Sequence record: PZ452609.1
DNA: 64,000 bases
Source: a phage
Reading direction: 5' to 3' (one strand)
Program-made: the position numbers and the translations under genes
Part shown: in pieces, positions 2,978 to 61,146 of the stretch
How positions within the stretch are numbered: position 1 is the stretch's first letter
Layout: every line of letters begins with the position of its first letter
The notes under the pieces: generated by a model
Told to the model about the DNA's origin: nothing
Databases searched by the model: none
Seen by the model: the letters and a program-made list of their open reading frames with translations, nothing else

Positions 2978-3361
2978 TCAAATACCTGTGCAGCTTCTGT
3001 TTTCTAAGAAATACTCAACACCATACATAGCTTTTTGCATCAAATCTTCTTTAAACTGGATACGGTGGTTGAGCATCGCCTGTACATCAATATCATCATG
3101 GTGCTTCTCTTTAATATTTGCAGATTGCAGGAAATACTCTGCAAGAACGCGATATTGATAGTCAGTCACCTTATCAGTCATCTCTGTCAAAGACTCTTCA
3201 GAAATTGGTTTTAGTAGCTCACCATTAGCTAGAGCAACACCTTTTACAATCTGACAAGTATCCTCTGGGACACCTGATAAGTTCACATTTGGCAGTTCTG
3301 TTGCATTGACTGGTAAATTCATTGCCATAACCATTGCAGCAGCTAATAAAATCTTTTTCAT
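2978..3361 (-). CDS. secreted/periplasmic protein
   Basis: N-terminal signal-peptide-like MKKILLAAAMVMAMNLPVNA. Confidence 0.45.
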   Translation of the reverse strand: MKKILLAAAMVMAMNLPVNATELPNVNLSGVPEDTCQIVKGVALANGELLKPISEESLTEMTDKVTDYQYRVLAEYFLQSANIKEKHHDDIDVQAMLNHRIQFKEDLMQKAMYGVEYFLENRSCTGI

Positions 3362-5258: not shown

Positions 5259-5402
5259 CTGTGTCAGATTTCATATAAGACCTGTCGCTAAACCTTTTAA
5301 TGAAATGTACAACGCATTTCGGTGTATCTTTTGCATCTTTGATGTGCAACCTTTCGAAACTGCGCACTGTGAAGGTTGCATCTGTCATTGTTTGCTTAGG
5401 TT

Positions 5403-5609
5403 TCATTTTCTCTTACCACCAATCTCTACGTCGATAACTTGAACATCACCAGCAACATCAAACTTATGAATGATGCTCTCAACAGTATAAGTCCAACCAT
5501 CAATGCGAACCAACTCACCTTCTCGTGGGACGATTGGATTACGTTGAGCTATGGTTGTAGTGGAGTGAACAACATCATAACGATAGGTATAGTTTACTAA
5601 TACTTCCAT
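5403..5609 (-). CDS. hypothetical protein
   Basis: Start moved to MEVLVNYT, which has a GAGG RBS. Confidence 0.35.
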   Translation of the reverse strand: MEVLVNYTYRYDVVHSTTTIAQRNPIVPREGELVRIDGWTYTVESIIHKFDVAGDVQVIDVEIGGKRK

Positions 5610-5619
5610 CGTGAAAACC

Positions 5620-5877
5620 TCACTCAATAACCGTAGTATGTGATTGACCATTTTTGCCATAGCTATAAGATGTTGTTGTTTGAGAGTTTGGGCATCTGAC
5701 AACAACAATATCTCTGCTTATAGCATCACCATTGAGTTTGTAGATTTTGCAGTCTTGCATCTCTGGAGGGAGGCTGTAAGAAGCATCTTTGTTTTCATAA
5801 GATGGGTTGCAGCCAGCCAGAAAAATTACTCCAAGTGCAACCATTGCTTTCACACAACTCTTAACCTTATTGTTCAC
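5620..5877 (-). CDS. putative lipoprotein
   Basis: Lipobox-like ..FLAGC.. after a hydrophobic N-terminus; GTG start with GAGAGG RBS. Confidence 0.45.
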   Translation of the reverse strand: MNNKVKSCVKAMVALGVIFLAGCNPSYENKDASYSLPPEMQDCKIYKLNGDAISRDIVVVRCPNSQTTTSYSYGKNGQSHTTVIE

Positions 5878-6009
5878 GATAGTCTACCTCTCTGTATGTT
5901 TTTAAATAGTGAGTGATGAGTTCTGGTAAGTCACTACGTTTAACGTTTGAACGAAGAAGTGTCCAGTCAAAACCTTTACCAACCCTTCCCCAGAGACTGT
6001 ACATTTTCT

Positions 6010-6243
6010 TCATAGCAACTCCAGAATATCAATACGTTCGCCTTTGAGTACTCCAGTACGGTCTTTTGCAATCTTACCGTCAACGATAAGGATGTGTGTA
6101 GACCTTAAAGCGTCGTTGTTAAAGGTTTTTACGAACTTGCTAGGCATGACTACAATGGACATCTCCTGAATTAACTCTGGAGTGTAGCAGTTATCATGAA
6201 GTTGCTGAATAACGTCTGCAAGTGTCATTTTTGATGTCTCCAA
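6010..6243 (-). CDS. hypothetical protein
   Basis: 77-aa ORF. Confidence 0.35.
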   Translation of the reverse strand: METSKMTLADVIQQLHDNCYTPELIQEMSIVVMPSKFVKTFNNDALRSTHILIVDGKIAKDRTGVLKGERIDILELL

Positions 6244-6434
6244 TATTCAATATCTACAAGTTCTTGTGCAATGCTTTTAAGGTTACTTTTAAGGAAAACT
6301 TTCTCACCACCAGACAGGGAAGTGTTATCAATGAGTCTACTCATTCTCTCAAACAACTTCTGCTTACGGTTCTTGATAGTTTCCTTTGAAGCACCTTTCA
6401 TCATCGCTGCGTGGGTTCTTCCACGATGGCTCAT
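6225..6434 (-). CDS. hypothetical protein
   Basis: 69-aa ORF. Confidence 0.3.
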   Translation of the reverse strand: MSHRGRTHAAMMKGASKETIKNRKQKLFERMSRLIDNTSLSGGEKVFLKSNLKSIAQELVDIEYWRHQK

Positions 6435-6495
6435 AAGCCCTCCTATATAAGATATAGTATAAGGTACTCTTCCATGAGAACCTTGTCAATACTAA

Positions 6496-56244: not shown

Positions 56245-57660
56245 ATGAGCGAGTTATTTAAACATGCGCACCTTCATGCAGGTCGAACTGAAAATGGTGC
56301 TGTAAACCATACTTCATCAATGTCTGCTCTTGTAGACTTTTACAAAGCTGCTGGTTCAAGCCGTAGCAATGTAGAAATCTTACCAGACCTGTTCTACAAA
56401 GCTTTGCGTGAGGATGTTGATGTTGCAGTTCGTATTTTACTGCATATGCGAGATGTACGAGAAGGTATGGGTGAGCGTAAAGCCTTCAGAGCTGTTTTAC
56501 TTCAAGCGATTGAAGACAAAGTTTTAGAGTCTACGCAGGTTCTTCGCATTATGGATAAGATTGCAGAACTTGGTCGTTTTGATGACTTCAAAATCTTCGT
56601 AGGTACTCGTTTCGAGACAGATGCCTTCAAACATTTAGAAGCAGCATTACTAGACCCTGCAACAGCAGGTTTGGCGGCTAAGTGGTTACCACGAGTCAAA
56701 CCACGTCATAAGCAGTTTGTAAAACGTTTCTGCAAGTTTGCCAACTTGAGTGAGAAAGAGTACCGCACACTGTTGTCTGCACTATCTGATACAGTTGAGC
56801 AAAAAATCTCTGCTAATGAGTTTGGTAAGATTGACTACAGTAAGATTCCTTCACTTGCTGCTGCACGTTACCAAAAACTGTTTAACCGTAAAGATGGAGA
56901 GCGTTACAAAGCTTACATCGAGTCCTTATCAAAAGGTGAGACTAAGATTAACGCTGGTGCTGTTTACCCATACGATGTGATTAAATCTGTCAAGTATGGT
57001 AATGCAGATGTTGCTAATGAGCAGTGGAAAGCACTACCAAACTGGATGGCAGAAGGTGAAAACATCTTGTGTATGTCTGATGTATCAAGTTCAATGTCTT
57101 GGGTGAATTTTGGCTCCATTACTGCTCTGGATATTGGTGTATCACTTGCCTTGTATGTAGCAGAACGCAATACAGGTTGCTTTAAGAATGAGTTGATGGT
57201 TTATTCAACAAACCCTCACTTCATCGAACTGAGTGGTGATTTACGAAACCGTCATCGTCAGGTGATGCGACACGTTGAATATGGCTCAACTAACTTACAA
57301 GCAGCTTTTGACCGCATTCTTGAAACAGGTAAAAGAAACAACTTGACTCAGAAAGATATGCCAAGTAAGCTTATCATCTTCTCCGATATGGAGTTTAATC
57401 AGGTTGATGGAGCTAACGGTCGTACAAACTTTGAAGCAATTCAGAGTAAGTACAAAAAAGCTGGATATGAGATGCCACAACTGGTATTCTGGTACTTAGC
57501 AAACCGTAATGGTACTTGCGAAGTATCTGTTAAGGATAACGGTGTAGCAATGGTATCAGGGTTCTCTCCAGCCACTTTAAAAGCTCTGCTTGGTGGTGAG
57601 AAGTTTGACCCAATCAGTGTAATGCTCAAAGCAGTAATGATTGACCGTTATATCTGGTAA
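56245..57660 (+). CDS. Ro60-like protein (TROVE-like N-terminal region + von Willebrand A domain)
   Basis: C-terminal MIDAS-like DVSSSM..STNLQ..FSDMEF (vWA); N-terminal NGAVNHTSSMSALVDFYKAAGSS follows the Ro60 TROVE pattern G.V...T....L..F...GS; immediately upstream of the tRNA cluster. Confidence 0.5.
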   Translation: MSELFKHAHLHAGRTENGAVNHTSSMSALVDFYKAAGSSRSNVEILPDLFYKALREDVDVAVRILLHMRDVREGMGERKAFRAVLLQAIEDKVLESTQVLRIMDKIAELGRFDDFKIFVGTRFETDAFKHLEAALLDPATAGLAAKWLPRVKPRHKQFVKRFCKFANLSEKEYRTLLSALSDTVEQKISANEFGKIDYSKIPSLAAARYQKLFNRKDGERYKAYIESLSKGETKINAGAVYPYDVIKSVKYGNADVANEQWKALPNWMAEGENILCMSDVSSSMSWVNFGSITALDIGVSLALYVAERNTGCFKNELMVYSTNPHFIELSGDLRNRHRQVMRHVEYGSTNLQAAFDRILETGKRNNLTQKDMPSKLIIFSDMEFNQVDGANGRTNFEAIQSKYKKAGYEMPQLVFWYLANRNGTCEVSVKDNGVAMVSGFSPATLKALLGGEKFDPISVMLKAVMIDRYIW

Positions 57661-57678: not shown

Positions 57679-57707
57679 TTGACAATGTGTTTAATACCCT
57701 TTAATAT
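57679..57707 (+). promoter_or_regulatory. sigma70-like promoter upstream of the tRNA cluster
   Basis: TTGACA, 17-bp spacer, TAATAT. Confidence 0.45.
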
Positions 57708-57825
57708 GTTCTACATAGAAACGAAATGAGAGCTTTTCTAAGATGCTGAAAAATATTTTAAAAAAGTTCTTGACAACCACTAAAAAATAATGTTAAAGTG
57801 GTTACATAAAGTTTGAAAAGTTTAT

Positions 57826-57990: not shown

Positions 57991-58080
57991 GTTTTGACAG
58001 AAGACCAATTACAGCAAACTTAATCTACTCATCTGAAAGTTAATCGGACAAAGAAGATATTTGGTCTGGTCATTAAGAAT

Positions 58081-58157
58081 TGCGGGTATAGAGAAAGGGC
58101 GTCTCACATGTCTCATTAGCATGGTATCGGCAGGTTCGACTCCTGCACCCGCCTCCA
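58081..58157 (+). tRNA. tRNA-Met (anticodon CAT); possible 1:72 mismatch (initiator-like) or register ambiguity
   Basis: Anticodon loop ctCATta; T-arm gcagg-ttcgact-cctgc. Confidence 0.6.
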
Positions 58158-58241
58158 AATTTACAGAAGACCGTTTACAGCAATATTTATTAAATTTTTA
58201 GCGGAAAAAATTGAAATATACGGTCTGGTAATACTAAACAT

Positions 58242-58318
58242 GGTTAGGAAGCACATAAGGTATGTGCGGTCGCCTGTTAAGCGAATGGCACAGGGTTCGA
58301 ATCCCTGACTAACCGCCA
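58242..58318 (+). tRNA. tRNA-Asn (anticodon GTT)
   Basis: Anticodon loop ctGTTaa. Confidence 0.65.
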
Positions 58319-58387
58319 AATTTAGGAGAGAAGCGATTGCTCACCGATTTGTAAGGTACAAGTCCTTAGCCTGAATAGAAATTAAAT

Positions 58388-58475
58388 GTGTCGTTATCCC
58401 GTAGATGGTAGCGGTGGGGACTGTAAATCCCTTGTCATTGAGACTCGGTAGGTTCGACTCCTACACGGCACACCA
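58388..58475 (+). tRNA. tRNA-Tyr (anticodon GTA), long variable arm
   Basis: Anticodon loop ctGTAaa; about 14-nt variable arm. Confidence 0.7.
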
Positions 58476-58480
58476 ATAAA

Positions 58481-58558
58481 GGTTATGTAGTTTAATTTGG
58501 TTAAAATACTCCCCTGTCACGGGAGATGATGAGGGTTCAAATCCCTTCGTAACCGCCA
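58481..58558 (+). tRNA. tRNA-Asp (anticodon GTC)
   Basis: Anticodon loop ctGTCac. Confidence 0.65.
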
Positions 58559-58705
58559 ATTTTGAGAGGGCTATTTAGCCCCTCCCTTAAAGGGTTCTTA
58601 CGAGTATTCTTTAAAGGAGCAGAAGACCAAATACAGCAAGTTATTTAAAATTTCAAGCCAATTTAATTTTGAAAAATTTAAAACTTGGTCTGGCTCAACA
58701 AATTT

Positions 58706-58838
58706 ACAGAAGACCGTTTACAGCAAAACTTAAACAATCTATTTCTCCGGTAAAGAAAAGGCGAAGGTTCGATTCCTTCACTCGGCAGATGTCGAGTTGG
58801 TGTAATGGTAGCACTTAAGATGATAAACAACGGTCTGG
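58706..58838 (+). ncRNA. permuted tRNA-like element, candidate Y RNA-like (YrlA-type) RNA
   Basis: Order is anticodon-like stem-loop, T-arm gaagg-ttcgatt-ccttc, acceptor 3' strand actcggc, short loop, acceptor 5' strand gtcgagt, D-arm tggtgtaatggtagcac; enclosed by an 8-bp helix agaccgtt/aacggtct. Confidence 0.45.
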
Positions 58839-58840
58839 TA

Positions 58841-58982
58841 ATTATCTTTGTAGATAAGTTATTAAGCTTACCTGTGAGTATGCGACCACAAAGGGTGAAA
58901 GGGTAAATTCTAGATTTAAACCCAAAAAGGCACATCGCTACAGACCTTAAGCAAGTCTGGGTAGCTTATCTACAAAGATAAT
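58841..58982. repeat. 19-bp perfect inverted repeat enclosing about 100 nt
   Basis: attatctttgtagataag at 58841 and cttatctacaaagataat at 58963. Confidence 0.7.
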
Positions 58983-58987
58983 TTAAT

Positions 58988-59310: not shown

Positions 59311-59339
59311 TTGACATTGAGATGTGACTACTTTATAGT
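59311..59339 (+). promoter_or_regulatory. strong sigma70-like promoter inside the tRNA cluster
   Basis: TTGACA, 17-bp spacer, TATAGT. Confidence 0.55.
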
Positions 59340-59570
59340 AACCTTAGTTTTCGTTGCGTAGCGTCTATTTTGCAAATTTAAAATAAATGCAAACGACAAT
59401 GTTTTTCTGGCAGTAGCTTGATAGGCTAAACACCAGTGAGGTCTTCCAATCCCTCATCAAAGAATTTGGCGTACTAGCCCACGGTATGATTAATAAGGTG
59501 GGCAACATTCTAAAGGGTATCCCTTATGGGGCTTGGCTTAAATGCAATGAGTACCCTTTAAAATGTTAAT

Positions 59571-59880: not shown

Positions 59881-60285
59881 ATGAAACTTTGTAGAAAATG
59901 TTCTCAAGAGAAGCCTTTAAGTTGCTTTCATAAAAGAGGGAATGGCTATCAGTCTGCTTGCAAAGATTGTAAAGCTAAGTACTCAGCAAAGAGATACAAA
60001 GAAGACCCTACTTATAAAGCAAAAAGGAAAGTTAGAGCAAAATATGACAAAAAGAGAAACAGAGAGTTCCTTAGTAGATATAAAAAGTTTTGCAAATGCA
60101 GAATATGTGGTGAATCCGAGCCAGTAGCTTTAGATTTTCATCACTTAGACCCTAAAGAGAAAGATTTTGCTCCAAGCAATCTTAAGACTTACTCTAGGGG
60201 AACTATTAAGCGTGAAGTTCGTAAGTGTGTTGTGCTTTGCTCAAACTGTCATAGGAAAGTTCATGCAGGACTGTTAAGTATTTAG
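59881..60285 (+). CDS. HNH endonuclease embedded in the tRNA cluster
   Basis: Cys-rich N-terminus plus FHHLDPKEKDF..CSNCHRKVH HNH motif. Confidence 0.7.
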   Translation: MKLCRKCSQEKPLSCFHKRGNGYQSACKDCKAKYSAKRYKEDPTYKAKRKVRAKYDKKRNREFLSRYKKFCKCRICGESEPVALDFHHLDPKEKDFAPSNLKTYSRGTIKREVRKCVVLCSNCHRKVHAGLLSI

Positions 60286-61050: not shown

Positions 61051-61146
61051 ATTCAGAGGTCAAGTGAAAGACCGCTTTGAGTCAACTGAAGACCGTAACA
61101 AATTCCACGAAGTTGAGTTAGCGGCACAACTTCAGACCTCTTTCAT

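Follow-up and report, generated by a model that had tools for sequence, protein, structure and literature searches.

Four repeated elements at the head of a phage tRNA array

We analysed a 64,000-nucleotide (nt) stretch of phage DNA (sequence record PZ452609.1; the window) and four related elements within it, E1 to E4, which lie among transfer RNA (tRNA) genes and share a paired terminal structure, here called the handle. The window is a Felixounavirus genome. Escherichia coli O157 typing phage 15 matches the region concerned at 100% identity, and many Felixounavirus genomes do so at 95-99%. Its + strand carries an array of 27 tRNA genes, and E1-E4 sit within the first kilobase of this array, 335-1181 nt downstream of an open reading frame (ORF) on the same strand whose product resembles Ro60. 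These features are:

56245..57660, + strand: gene for a Ro60-like protein of 471 amino acids (DUF2828 plus DUF7788, that is, a helical ring plus a von Willebrand factor A (vWA) domain; from Pfam and fold search)
57995-58072, + strand: E1, candidate short handle RNA between tRNA-Glu and tRNA-Met; inner stem 58002-58008 / 58061-58067, ACAGCAA 58011-58017, unpaired G 58068
58161-58231, + strand: E2, candidate short handle RNA between tRNA-Met and tRNA-Asn; inner stem 58168-58174 / 58220-58226, ACAGCAA 58177-58183, unpaired G 58227
58617-58696, + strand: E3, candidate short handle RNA 3' of tRNA-Asp; inner stem 58624-58630 / 58685-58691, ACAGCAA 58633-58639, unpaired G 58692
58704-58841, + strand: E4, candidate long handle RNA with the same handle as E2, enclosing a circularly permuted tRNA-like domain; stem 58711-58718 / 58829-58836, ACAGCAA 58720-58726, unpaired G 58837

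A preliminary description of this DNA had reported four paired motifs, and these are real. The sequence CAGAAGACCNNWTACAGCAA matches the + strand without mismatch at 57998, 58164, 58620 and 58707, four exact matches against 0.15 expected, and no fifth match appears in the 64 kb even when 3 mismatches are allowed. GGTCTGG occurs on the + strand at 58063, 58222, 58687 and 58832 only, once downstream of each CAGAAGACCNNWTACAGCAA. The coordinates given earlier for the 3' partners were 2-6 nt off. The combined pattern AGACC-N30-60-GGTCTGG was found 3 times, against 0.08 expected.

E1-E4 share one architecture, and their four folds are superimposable. An outer stem of 4 bp (in order, UGAC/GUCA, UUAC/GUAA, GAGC/GCUC and UUAC/GUAA) is followed by an AGA/G internal loop and then by an inner 7-bp stem, AGACCNN/NNGGUCU, with unpaired (U)UACAGCAA after its 5' strand. 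The alignment revealed compensatory changes in both stems: the outer stems covary among the copies, and the NN positions of the inner stem covary as well, AA/UU in some copies and GU/AC in others. E1-E3 are hairpins of 70-80 nt with AT-rich interiors, and E4 encloses the tRNA-like module, so that the earlier picture of three pairs around AT-rich loops and a fourth around a permuted tRNA-like domain is seen in the folds. From sequence reading, folding and alignment to a tRNA model, the parts of the E4 domain are predicted as follows:

58742-58814, + strand: tRNA-like domain
58742-58758, + strand: anticodon/V-like hairpin with a 7-nt loop, CCGGUAA
58763-58779, + strand: T arm, GGUUCGAUUCC
58780-58797, + strand: acceptor stem closed by AGAU
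58800-58814, + strand: D arm

The tRNA family model RF00005 aligns to E4 only in part (58730-58780, 22 bits). ARAGORN reported nothing in 57991-58080, 58158-58241 or 58559-58987; tRNA finders detect no canonical cloverleaf in E1-E4. At gathering thresholds, Rfam returned tRNAs only, both for the window and for 11 related loci, and the elements are covered by no described family.

The upstream gene encodes a protein with a predicted Ro60 fold

Pfam assigns the product of ORF 56245-57660 to DUF7788 (1.7e-43) and DUF2828 (3.8e-29), and to nothing else. By sequence the protein is not a member of Pfam TROVE, and phmmer against the PDB gives no Ro60; the likeness to Ro60 is visible by fold search only. 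An AlphaFold2 model of the protein (predicted local distance difference test score, pLDDT, 79.8) was compared with the PDB by Foldseek. The top 11 matches were all Ro60/TROVE structures (E 3e-8 to 4e-5, template modelling (TM) score 0.5-0.6, probability 1.00), with full-length matches to 9kop, 9l5y, 2nvo, 1yvr, 1yvp and 2i91, and the best structural matches are the Ro60 of Thermus phage phiLo, Rsr of D. radiodurans and Xenopus Ro60. As modelled, the protein has the Ro60 fold, a ring of HEAT repeats plus a vWA domain.

The positional ortholog of this ORF in phage Bas63 is bas63_0130 (gp130). The PhageMaP preprint describes Bas63 gp130 as structurally Ro60-like and as a protein that counters Ppl, a bacterial defence system. 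In it the authors note that Y RNAs may be among the downstream "tRNA genes", and identify none. DUF2828 proteins were found in 710 of the ~50,700 phage genomes searched, from many host genera. Beyond phages, DUF2828 proteins are reported in eukaryotes, namely plants, and also as mimivirus-like.

The handle accompanies DUF2828 genes in distant phages

We examined 75 IMG/VR loci (numbered with the prefix L below) whose DUF2828 protein is 38-47% identical to that of the window. An element was counted where WCAGCAA was accompanied by a near-perfect 7-bp stem (at most 1 G-U pair) and a 3' G. On the strand of the gene, 65 such elements lie within 1.3 kb of the DUF2828 gene (189 kb in total) and 10 lie further away (582 kb); the opposite strand has 1 in both zones together. 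In most of the loci ACAGCAA or UCAGCAA adjoins the gene on its own strand, often as 2-5 tandem copies, at 30-120 nt beyond the stop or ahead of the start. Upstream of the heptamer, and separated from it by 2 nt, stand 7 nt that can pair with a complementary segment 30-250 nt further on, itself followed by a G. Among the relatives there are ~40 different stem sequences; per heptamer, an exact 7-mer complement with a G after it would turn up within 220 nt by chance with a probability of ~0.003. A recognisable element lies within 1.3-1.5 kb of the gene in ~70-75% of all loci.

The consensus of the handle is (A/U)G-stem, 2 nt, WCAGCAA ... stem-C(U/A)G. Invariant are the G-C pair, the R-Y pair above it, the U before the heptamer, CAGCAA and the 3' C-(U/A)-G, while the interior is free. 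All four copies in the window retain every one of the family-invariant positions, with compensatory changes in their stems.

Since full-length MAFFT alignments misplaced the 3' strands, loop-trimmed sequences of equal length were used to build a covariance model, R1, from 17 elements that included no Felixounavirus sequence. This alignment has double changes at 6 of its 7 stem pairs and an invariant G-C as the second pair. Applied to the window, R1 recovered E2 (36.5 bits, E 7.9e-7), E3 (33.8 bits, E 4.1e-6) and E1 (33.0 bits, E 6.5e-6), and beyond these three the next-best match across the 64 kb had E = 1; E4 was missed solely on account of its 126-nt insert. All 55 R1 matches in the 75 loci fall on the gene strand. 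Among the 49 distinct matches 98.5% of cells are paired, with 117 double-change cells; when the partner was slid by 1-3 columns as a control, 30-48% of cells were paired.

The preliminary description had proposed looking for the motif in related phages, and the same handle is indeed found well beyond them, beside DUF2828 genes only 29-47% identical in phages whose hosts include Vibrio and Aeromonas. Mycobacterium phage BigCheese has 3 copies just 3' of a gene annotated "Ro-like RNA binding protein", with no tRNAs nearby. Listeria, Enterococcus and Bacillus phages have 3 or 4 copies just before the DUF2828 gene, a Staphylococcus phage has 3 after it, and a Campylobacter phage has 2 before it. 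In the phages just listed with their copy numbers protein identity is 29-37%; a Yersinia phage, at 53%, has the handle in tandem too.

The interior of the element varies

The sequence enclosed by the handle falls into several classes. One class is the short AT-rich loop, as in E1-E3. Minimal copies of 33-37 nt stand directly before the Shine-Dalgarno sequence of the DUF2828 gene in L007, L012, L013, L030, L036 and L054. Copies in the 5' untranslated region (UTR) are to be expected of a gene whose protein binds this RNA, and those of these other phages hint that the protein feeds back on its own translation.

Permuted tRNA-like domains like that of E4 occur in L024, L026, L050, L060, L073 and L079, and in L026, L050, L060 and L073 NCCA opens the loop that closes the acceptor. 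A consensus fold of E4 and 11 long relatives keeps the handle, the T arm and the D arm. One handle in L050 (5734-5834; AGGTTAG..TCAGCAA ... CTAACCTG) encloses a complete canonical tRNA (RF00005, 52.9 bits at 5753-5824) instead of a permuted mimic. Larger modules of 95-250 nt form a further class of interior. A third class of handle RNA, with the common interior CCUUUCUGGAGGGGAAAGCAAAAACUCGCCAAAA, is found at L007:5276-5371, L009:3133-3233 and L030:5734-5829. A handle stem with a varying interior follows the modular plan of Y RNAs, in which an effector module is joined to a stem that binds protein.

Comparison with known RNAs

We compared the locus with the Ro60-Y RNA particles of Salmonella (rsr-yrlBA, with YrlA and YrlB), D. 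radiodurans (Rsr-Yrn1) and Thermus phage phiLo (phiRo60-Yrl1/Yrl2). All have a ring-plus-vWA protein of the Ro60 fold with one to several small RNAs encoded beside it on the same strand, and in all the paired RNA ends form a terminal stem beside a conserved protein-binding motif, which in the window is putative. The ends of E1-E4 form such a stem, and across the relatives it covaries in 6 of 7 pairs. The survey of Chen et al. 2014 looked for Y RNAs within ~4 kb of a Ro60 gene and on its strand; E1-E4 lie so placed, the neighbour being Ro60 by fold and a DUF2828 gene by family. The domain order of YrlA (V hairpin, T arm, closed acceptor, D arm) is also that of E4 at 58742-58814, and YrlB and the Yrl RNAs are, like E1-E3, shorter RNAs that lack a tRNA-like domain. 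Differences are equally clear. The protein belongs to DUF2828/DUF7788 and not to Pfam TROVE, and E1-E4 are embedded in a 27-tRNA array. Neither the bulged GGUCCGA helix of animal Y RNAs nor the bacterial and phage GNCGAAN0-1G / CGAA motif is present in E1-E4, whose 5' strand reads ACAGAAGACC and then (U)UACAGCAA, with no CGAA.

The YrlA model RF02553 matched long relatives at 28.7-44.9 bits, with E down to 2e-8 in a local search and scores below the gathering score of 69 bits. These matches cover the tRNA-like interior, and the handle lies outside the 5' end of the model. E4 itself gave no match to RF02553 at E<=10. The survey of Chen et al. 2014 was limited to genomes annotated with TROVE proteins, and this is why it missed the handle RNA family.

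An unexpected likeness, striking in its layout, is to the Class I RNAs of Dictyostelium. These are 42-65 nt long and AT-rich, with a variable interior, a 3' C-U-G(-U), and a 6-bp terminal stem that starts from an invariant G paired with C and is followed by the single-stranded 11-nt motif CCUUACAGCAA (PMC7919456). DdR-21, for example, reads GUUGACCUUACAGCAA...GUCAACUG. The phage handle, (A)G-stem-NU-WCAGCAA ... stem-C-U-G-N, has in common with them 9 of the 11 motif positions, the G-C pair and the C-U-G, and the spacing from the G-C pair to ACAGCAA is 1 nt longer in Class I. The Class I family, RF01414, was the only non-tRNA Rfam family that repeatedly aligned end-to-end with short elements. 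Its scores (21.1 bits for E2, 12.8 for E4, and 23.4-24.4 for L056, L073 and L076) fall below the gathering score of 41.5, and with E-values of 2-9 after correction for all families they are no proof of homology. Class I RNAs differ, moreover, in having their own DUSE promoter and a known partner with an RNA recognition motif (RRM), Rnp1A, whereas the window is phage DNA with sigma-70-like promoters. The paper on RNP1A is silent on both Class I RNAs and vWA proteins, and the outgroup hits in Table S4 of Kjellin et al. 2021 (e.g. an Arabidopsis locus, covariance model score 40) are too few to interpret (PMC7919456). Stem, WCAGCAA and CUG could together be the universal ligand of the DUF2828 branch, with Class I RNAs as its eukaryotic members or horizontally acquired descendants; we regard this as a tentative idea, and on the whole a doubtful one.

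E4 and its relatives also recall permuted tRNA genes and two-piece transfer-messenger RNA (tmRNA), in that the T arm and the 3' strand of the acceptor precede the 5' strand of the acceptor and the D arm. E4 departs from them in its acceptor loop, AGAU, which contains no CCA, in the C at position 33 of the anticodon-like loop, and in being clamped by the handle stem, with no sign of processing to a functional tRNA. Stable structured RNAs other than tRNAs that are co-transcribed and co-processed with phage tRNAs have a precedent in the species 1 and 2 RNAs of T4. We know of no Ro60-like gene linked to those.

Transcription context and neighbouring features

A consensus scan located two sigma-70-like promoters 3' of the DUF2828 gene, each with 10 of 12 consensus positions:

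57679-57707, + strand: sigma-70-like promoter
57770-57799, + strand: sigma-70-like promoter

In the array, the scan gave no terminator-like site on the + strand upstream of 59311, where the next promoter-like site lies. It would follow that E1-E4 are co-transcribed with the tRNAs Pro, Glu, Met, Asn, Tyr and Asp, in a unit driven by these two promoters.

Several other features lie in or near the array. Directly 3' of E4 and before tRNA-Lys, 58842-58981 (+ strand) folds into a 22-bp perfect closing stem around ~95 nt with internal hairpins (minimum free energy -46.4 kcal/mol, z -5.5); this structured RNA has no Rfam match and no WCAGCAA handle. Small hypothetical ORFs run on the - strand over E4 and this next RNA (window 58678-58935), and their Bas63 counterparts, also on the - strand (L088:2815-2967 and 2979-3089), are bas63_0137 and bas63_0138 in GenBank. 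These opposite-strand ORFs are probably spurious annotations of RNA genes.

The preliminary description had also pointed to a related variant at about 61086. The string is present there, in a hairpin at 61055-61141 (+ strand, z -3.3) between tRNA-Thr and tRNA-Val that contains CTGAAGACCGTAACAA and has 9 nt in common with the 5' strand of E2 and E4. As a candidate fifth copy the site was rejected: it has neither WCAGCAA nor a GGUCU partner and was missed by both the descriptor scan and the covariance model. For the 9-nt identity, GAAGACCGT, ~0.5 occurrences are expected in 64 kb on both strands, and it may be a relic or chance.

The segment 59237-59421 (+ strand) gave a sub-threshold match to permuted tmRNA (RF04321, 29.2 bits, E 0.004). 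An ORF inside it (59389-59421) reads ANDNVFLAVA-stop, resembling a tmRNA tag peptide. The region also contains a strong promoter-like site (59311-59339), and ARAGORN calls no tmRNA there. It may encode a tmRNA of the phage's own, permuted or two-piece. At L024:1353-1676 a permuted tmRNA is strongly matched (RF04321, 71.7 bits), on a phage contig that also carries a DUF2828 gene and a tRNA-like handle RNA. Between tRNA-Trp and tRNA-Ser of the window's array there is a 134-amino-acid ORF with weak HNH endonuclease matches (59881-60285, + strand). In Listeria phage LMSP-25 (L082) the DUF2828 gene has a ROOL RNA 1 kb upstream (928-1479; 88.5 bits, just short of the gathering score) and, 1.3 kb downstream, a tRNA-splicing ligase of the RtcB type (5308-6455). 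This locus can be likened to bacterial rsr-rtcB operons, an RNA-repair neighbourhood.

Interpretation and alternatives

The observations are the repeat, a common structure that covaries, a neighbouring protein with the Ro60 fold, and a handle tightly linked to that gene, on its strand, across distant phages. From these we consider it likely that E1-E4 are paralogous small non-coding RNAs whose handle is the binding site of the upstream Ro60-like DUF2828 protein, that is, ligands resembling Y RNAs. That they are stably expressed, physically bound and active downstream is what we infer from these observations. E1-E4 would be transcribed together with the phage tRNAs and probably freed by end-processing of the flanking tRNAs. 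The handle stem, lengthened in Felixounavirus by the 4-bp outer stem, would shield the RNA ends. The protein would bind the handle, a terminal stem with an invariant G-C as its second pair, an unpaired 3' G and (A/U)CAGCAA placed 2 nt past the 5' strand. The variable interior would then be a payload, an AT-rich loop in E1-E3 and a permuted tRNA mimic in E4 as in bacterial YrlA, and this interior, the tRNA mimic of E4 above all, might recruit or occlude other factors, as in Ro60/Y RNA/PNPase (polynucleotide phosphorylase) complexes. By analogy with those complexes, the RNAs may during infection act as a gate on the protein, or as its tether to enzymes that recognise tRNA or that degrade and repair RNA. 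What would be new is a widespread family of handle RNAs tied to DUF2828 Ro60-like proteins, a different handle for a different Ro60 paralogue; the family was not found in Rfam 15 or in the searched literature.

Several points weigh against this proposal. The preliminary description had offered a Ro60-binding type of helix as one option. Of those it named, that option is the best supported: a Ro60-fold ORF lies directly upstream, and the handle tracks its gene family across distant phages. But the handle differs from the known Ro60-binding motifs, the protein is a DUF2828 paralogue outside Pfam TROVE, and its binding is deduced from adjacency. Within 1.3-1.5 kb of the gene, about a quarter of DUF2828 loci lack a clear element, and only Felixounavirus has the 4-bp outer stem with the AGA/G loop. 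The folding z-scores of E1-E4, -1.1 to -2.6, are modest and unconvincing alone; the folding energies are unremarkable because the loops are AT-rich, and the significance of the elements comes from the repeat statistics and the comparison with other phages. The pairing statistics are partly circular, since partners were picked by complementarity. This circularity is offset by the chance expectation of ~0.003, the bias in strand and position, and the independent test of the model on the window.

The handle RNAs could be real and have a partner other than the DUF2828 protein, such as host PNPase, RNase P, a tRNA-modifying enzyme or another phage protein, with adjacency reflecting only a shared neighbourhood of tRNA and RNA metabolism. 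DUF2828 genes usually lie in tRNA clusters, so that co-location could be indirect, and some loci have no element near the gene. We nevertheless think this unlikely, given that the elements of many loci are placed, independently of tRNAs, at 30-120 nt from the start or stop of the gene (BigCheese, L008-L028), that some stand within the gene's own 5' UTR, and that the linkage holds from actinophages to Felixounavirus. It is less likely still that the elements are spacers or processing clamps of the tRNA precursor, which guide RNase P, E or Z and are degraded after cleavage. In the window they do lie between tRNAs, 4-11 nt from the tRNA ends, and the outer stem specific to Felixounavirus could aid processing. 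Yet the same handle occurs where no tRNAs flank it, directly before or after the gene and in 5' UTRs; a spacer needs no invariant single-stranded heptamer and no invariant G-C pair and G; and other tRNA junctions in the same array (57905/57913 and 58475/58481) carry no element. The suggestion of processing signals in the preliminary description loses most of its appeal on these grounds.

We give little credence to the view that the elements are cis-acting operators or attenuators of DUF2828 or of downstream genes instead of trans-acting RNAs. Short copies do stand directly before the Shine-Dalgarno sequence of the gene in several loci, whereas the window copies lie 335-1181 nt downstream of it, behind two promoters and among tRNAs, and tandem copies and tRNA-like payloads are ill-suited to a simple operator. 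An operator role is in any case compatible with binding by the DUF2828 protein, which would then regulate its own gene by ligand mimicry. That the elements are selfish or decaying repeats without a function, whether remnants of tRNA pseudogenes or a miniature mobile element spreading in tRNA arrays, seems to us extremely improbable. Four copies within 850 nt, the tRNA-like arms of E4 and the HNH endonuclease gene within the array would fit such an origin. Against it, the stem is preserved by compensatory changes as the loops drift apart freely, conservation of the motif extends across host phyla, and its orientation is strictly that of the DUF2828 gene. The earlier notion that the four are decayed copies of one non-coding RNA finds no support: every family-invariant position has been kept, and the changes in the stems are compensatory.

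Ro60 and its Y RNAs are a classic RNA-surveillance system, and the study of phage versions is only beginning. Our analysis names likely RNA partners for DUF2828 proteins and gives a simple, searchable handle, conserved from mycobacteriophages to Felixounavirus, whose payloads are modular: tRNA mimics, whole tRNAs and larger domains. It makes the ribonucleoprotein directly testable, and annotations would be corrected in regions that are now blank or filled with small hypothetical ORFs on the wrong strand. Should the link to Dictyostelium be true, the abundant and functionally unexplained Class I RNAs would receive a predicted protein partner and a mechanism like that of Y RNAs, which would bear on a question that has stood for twenty years.

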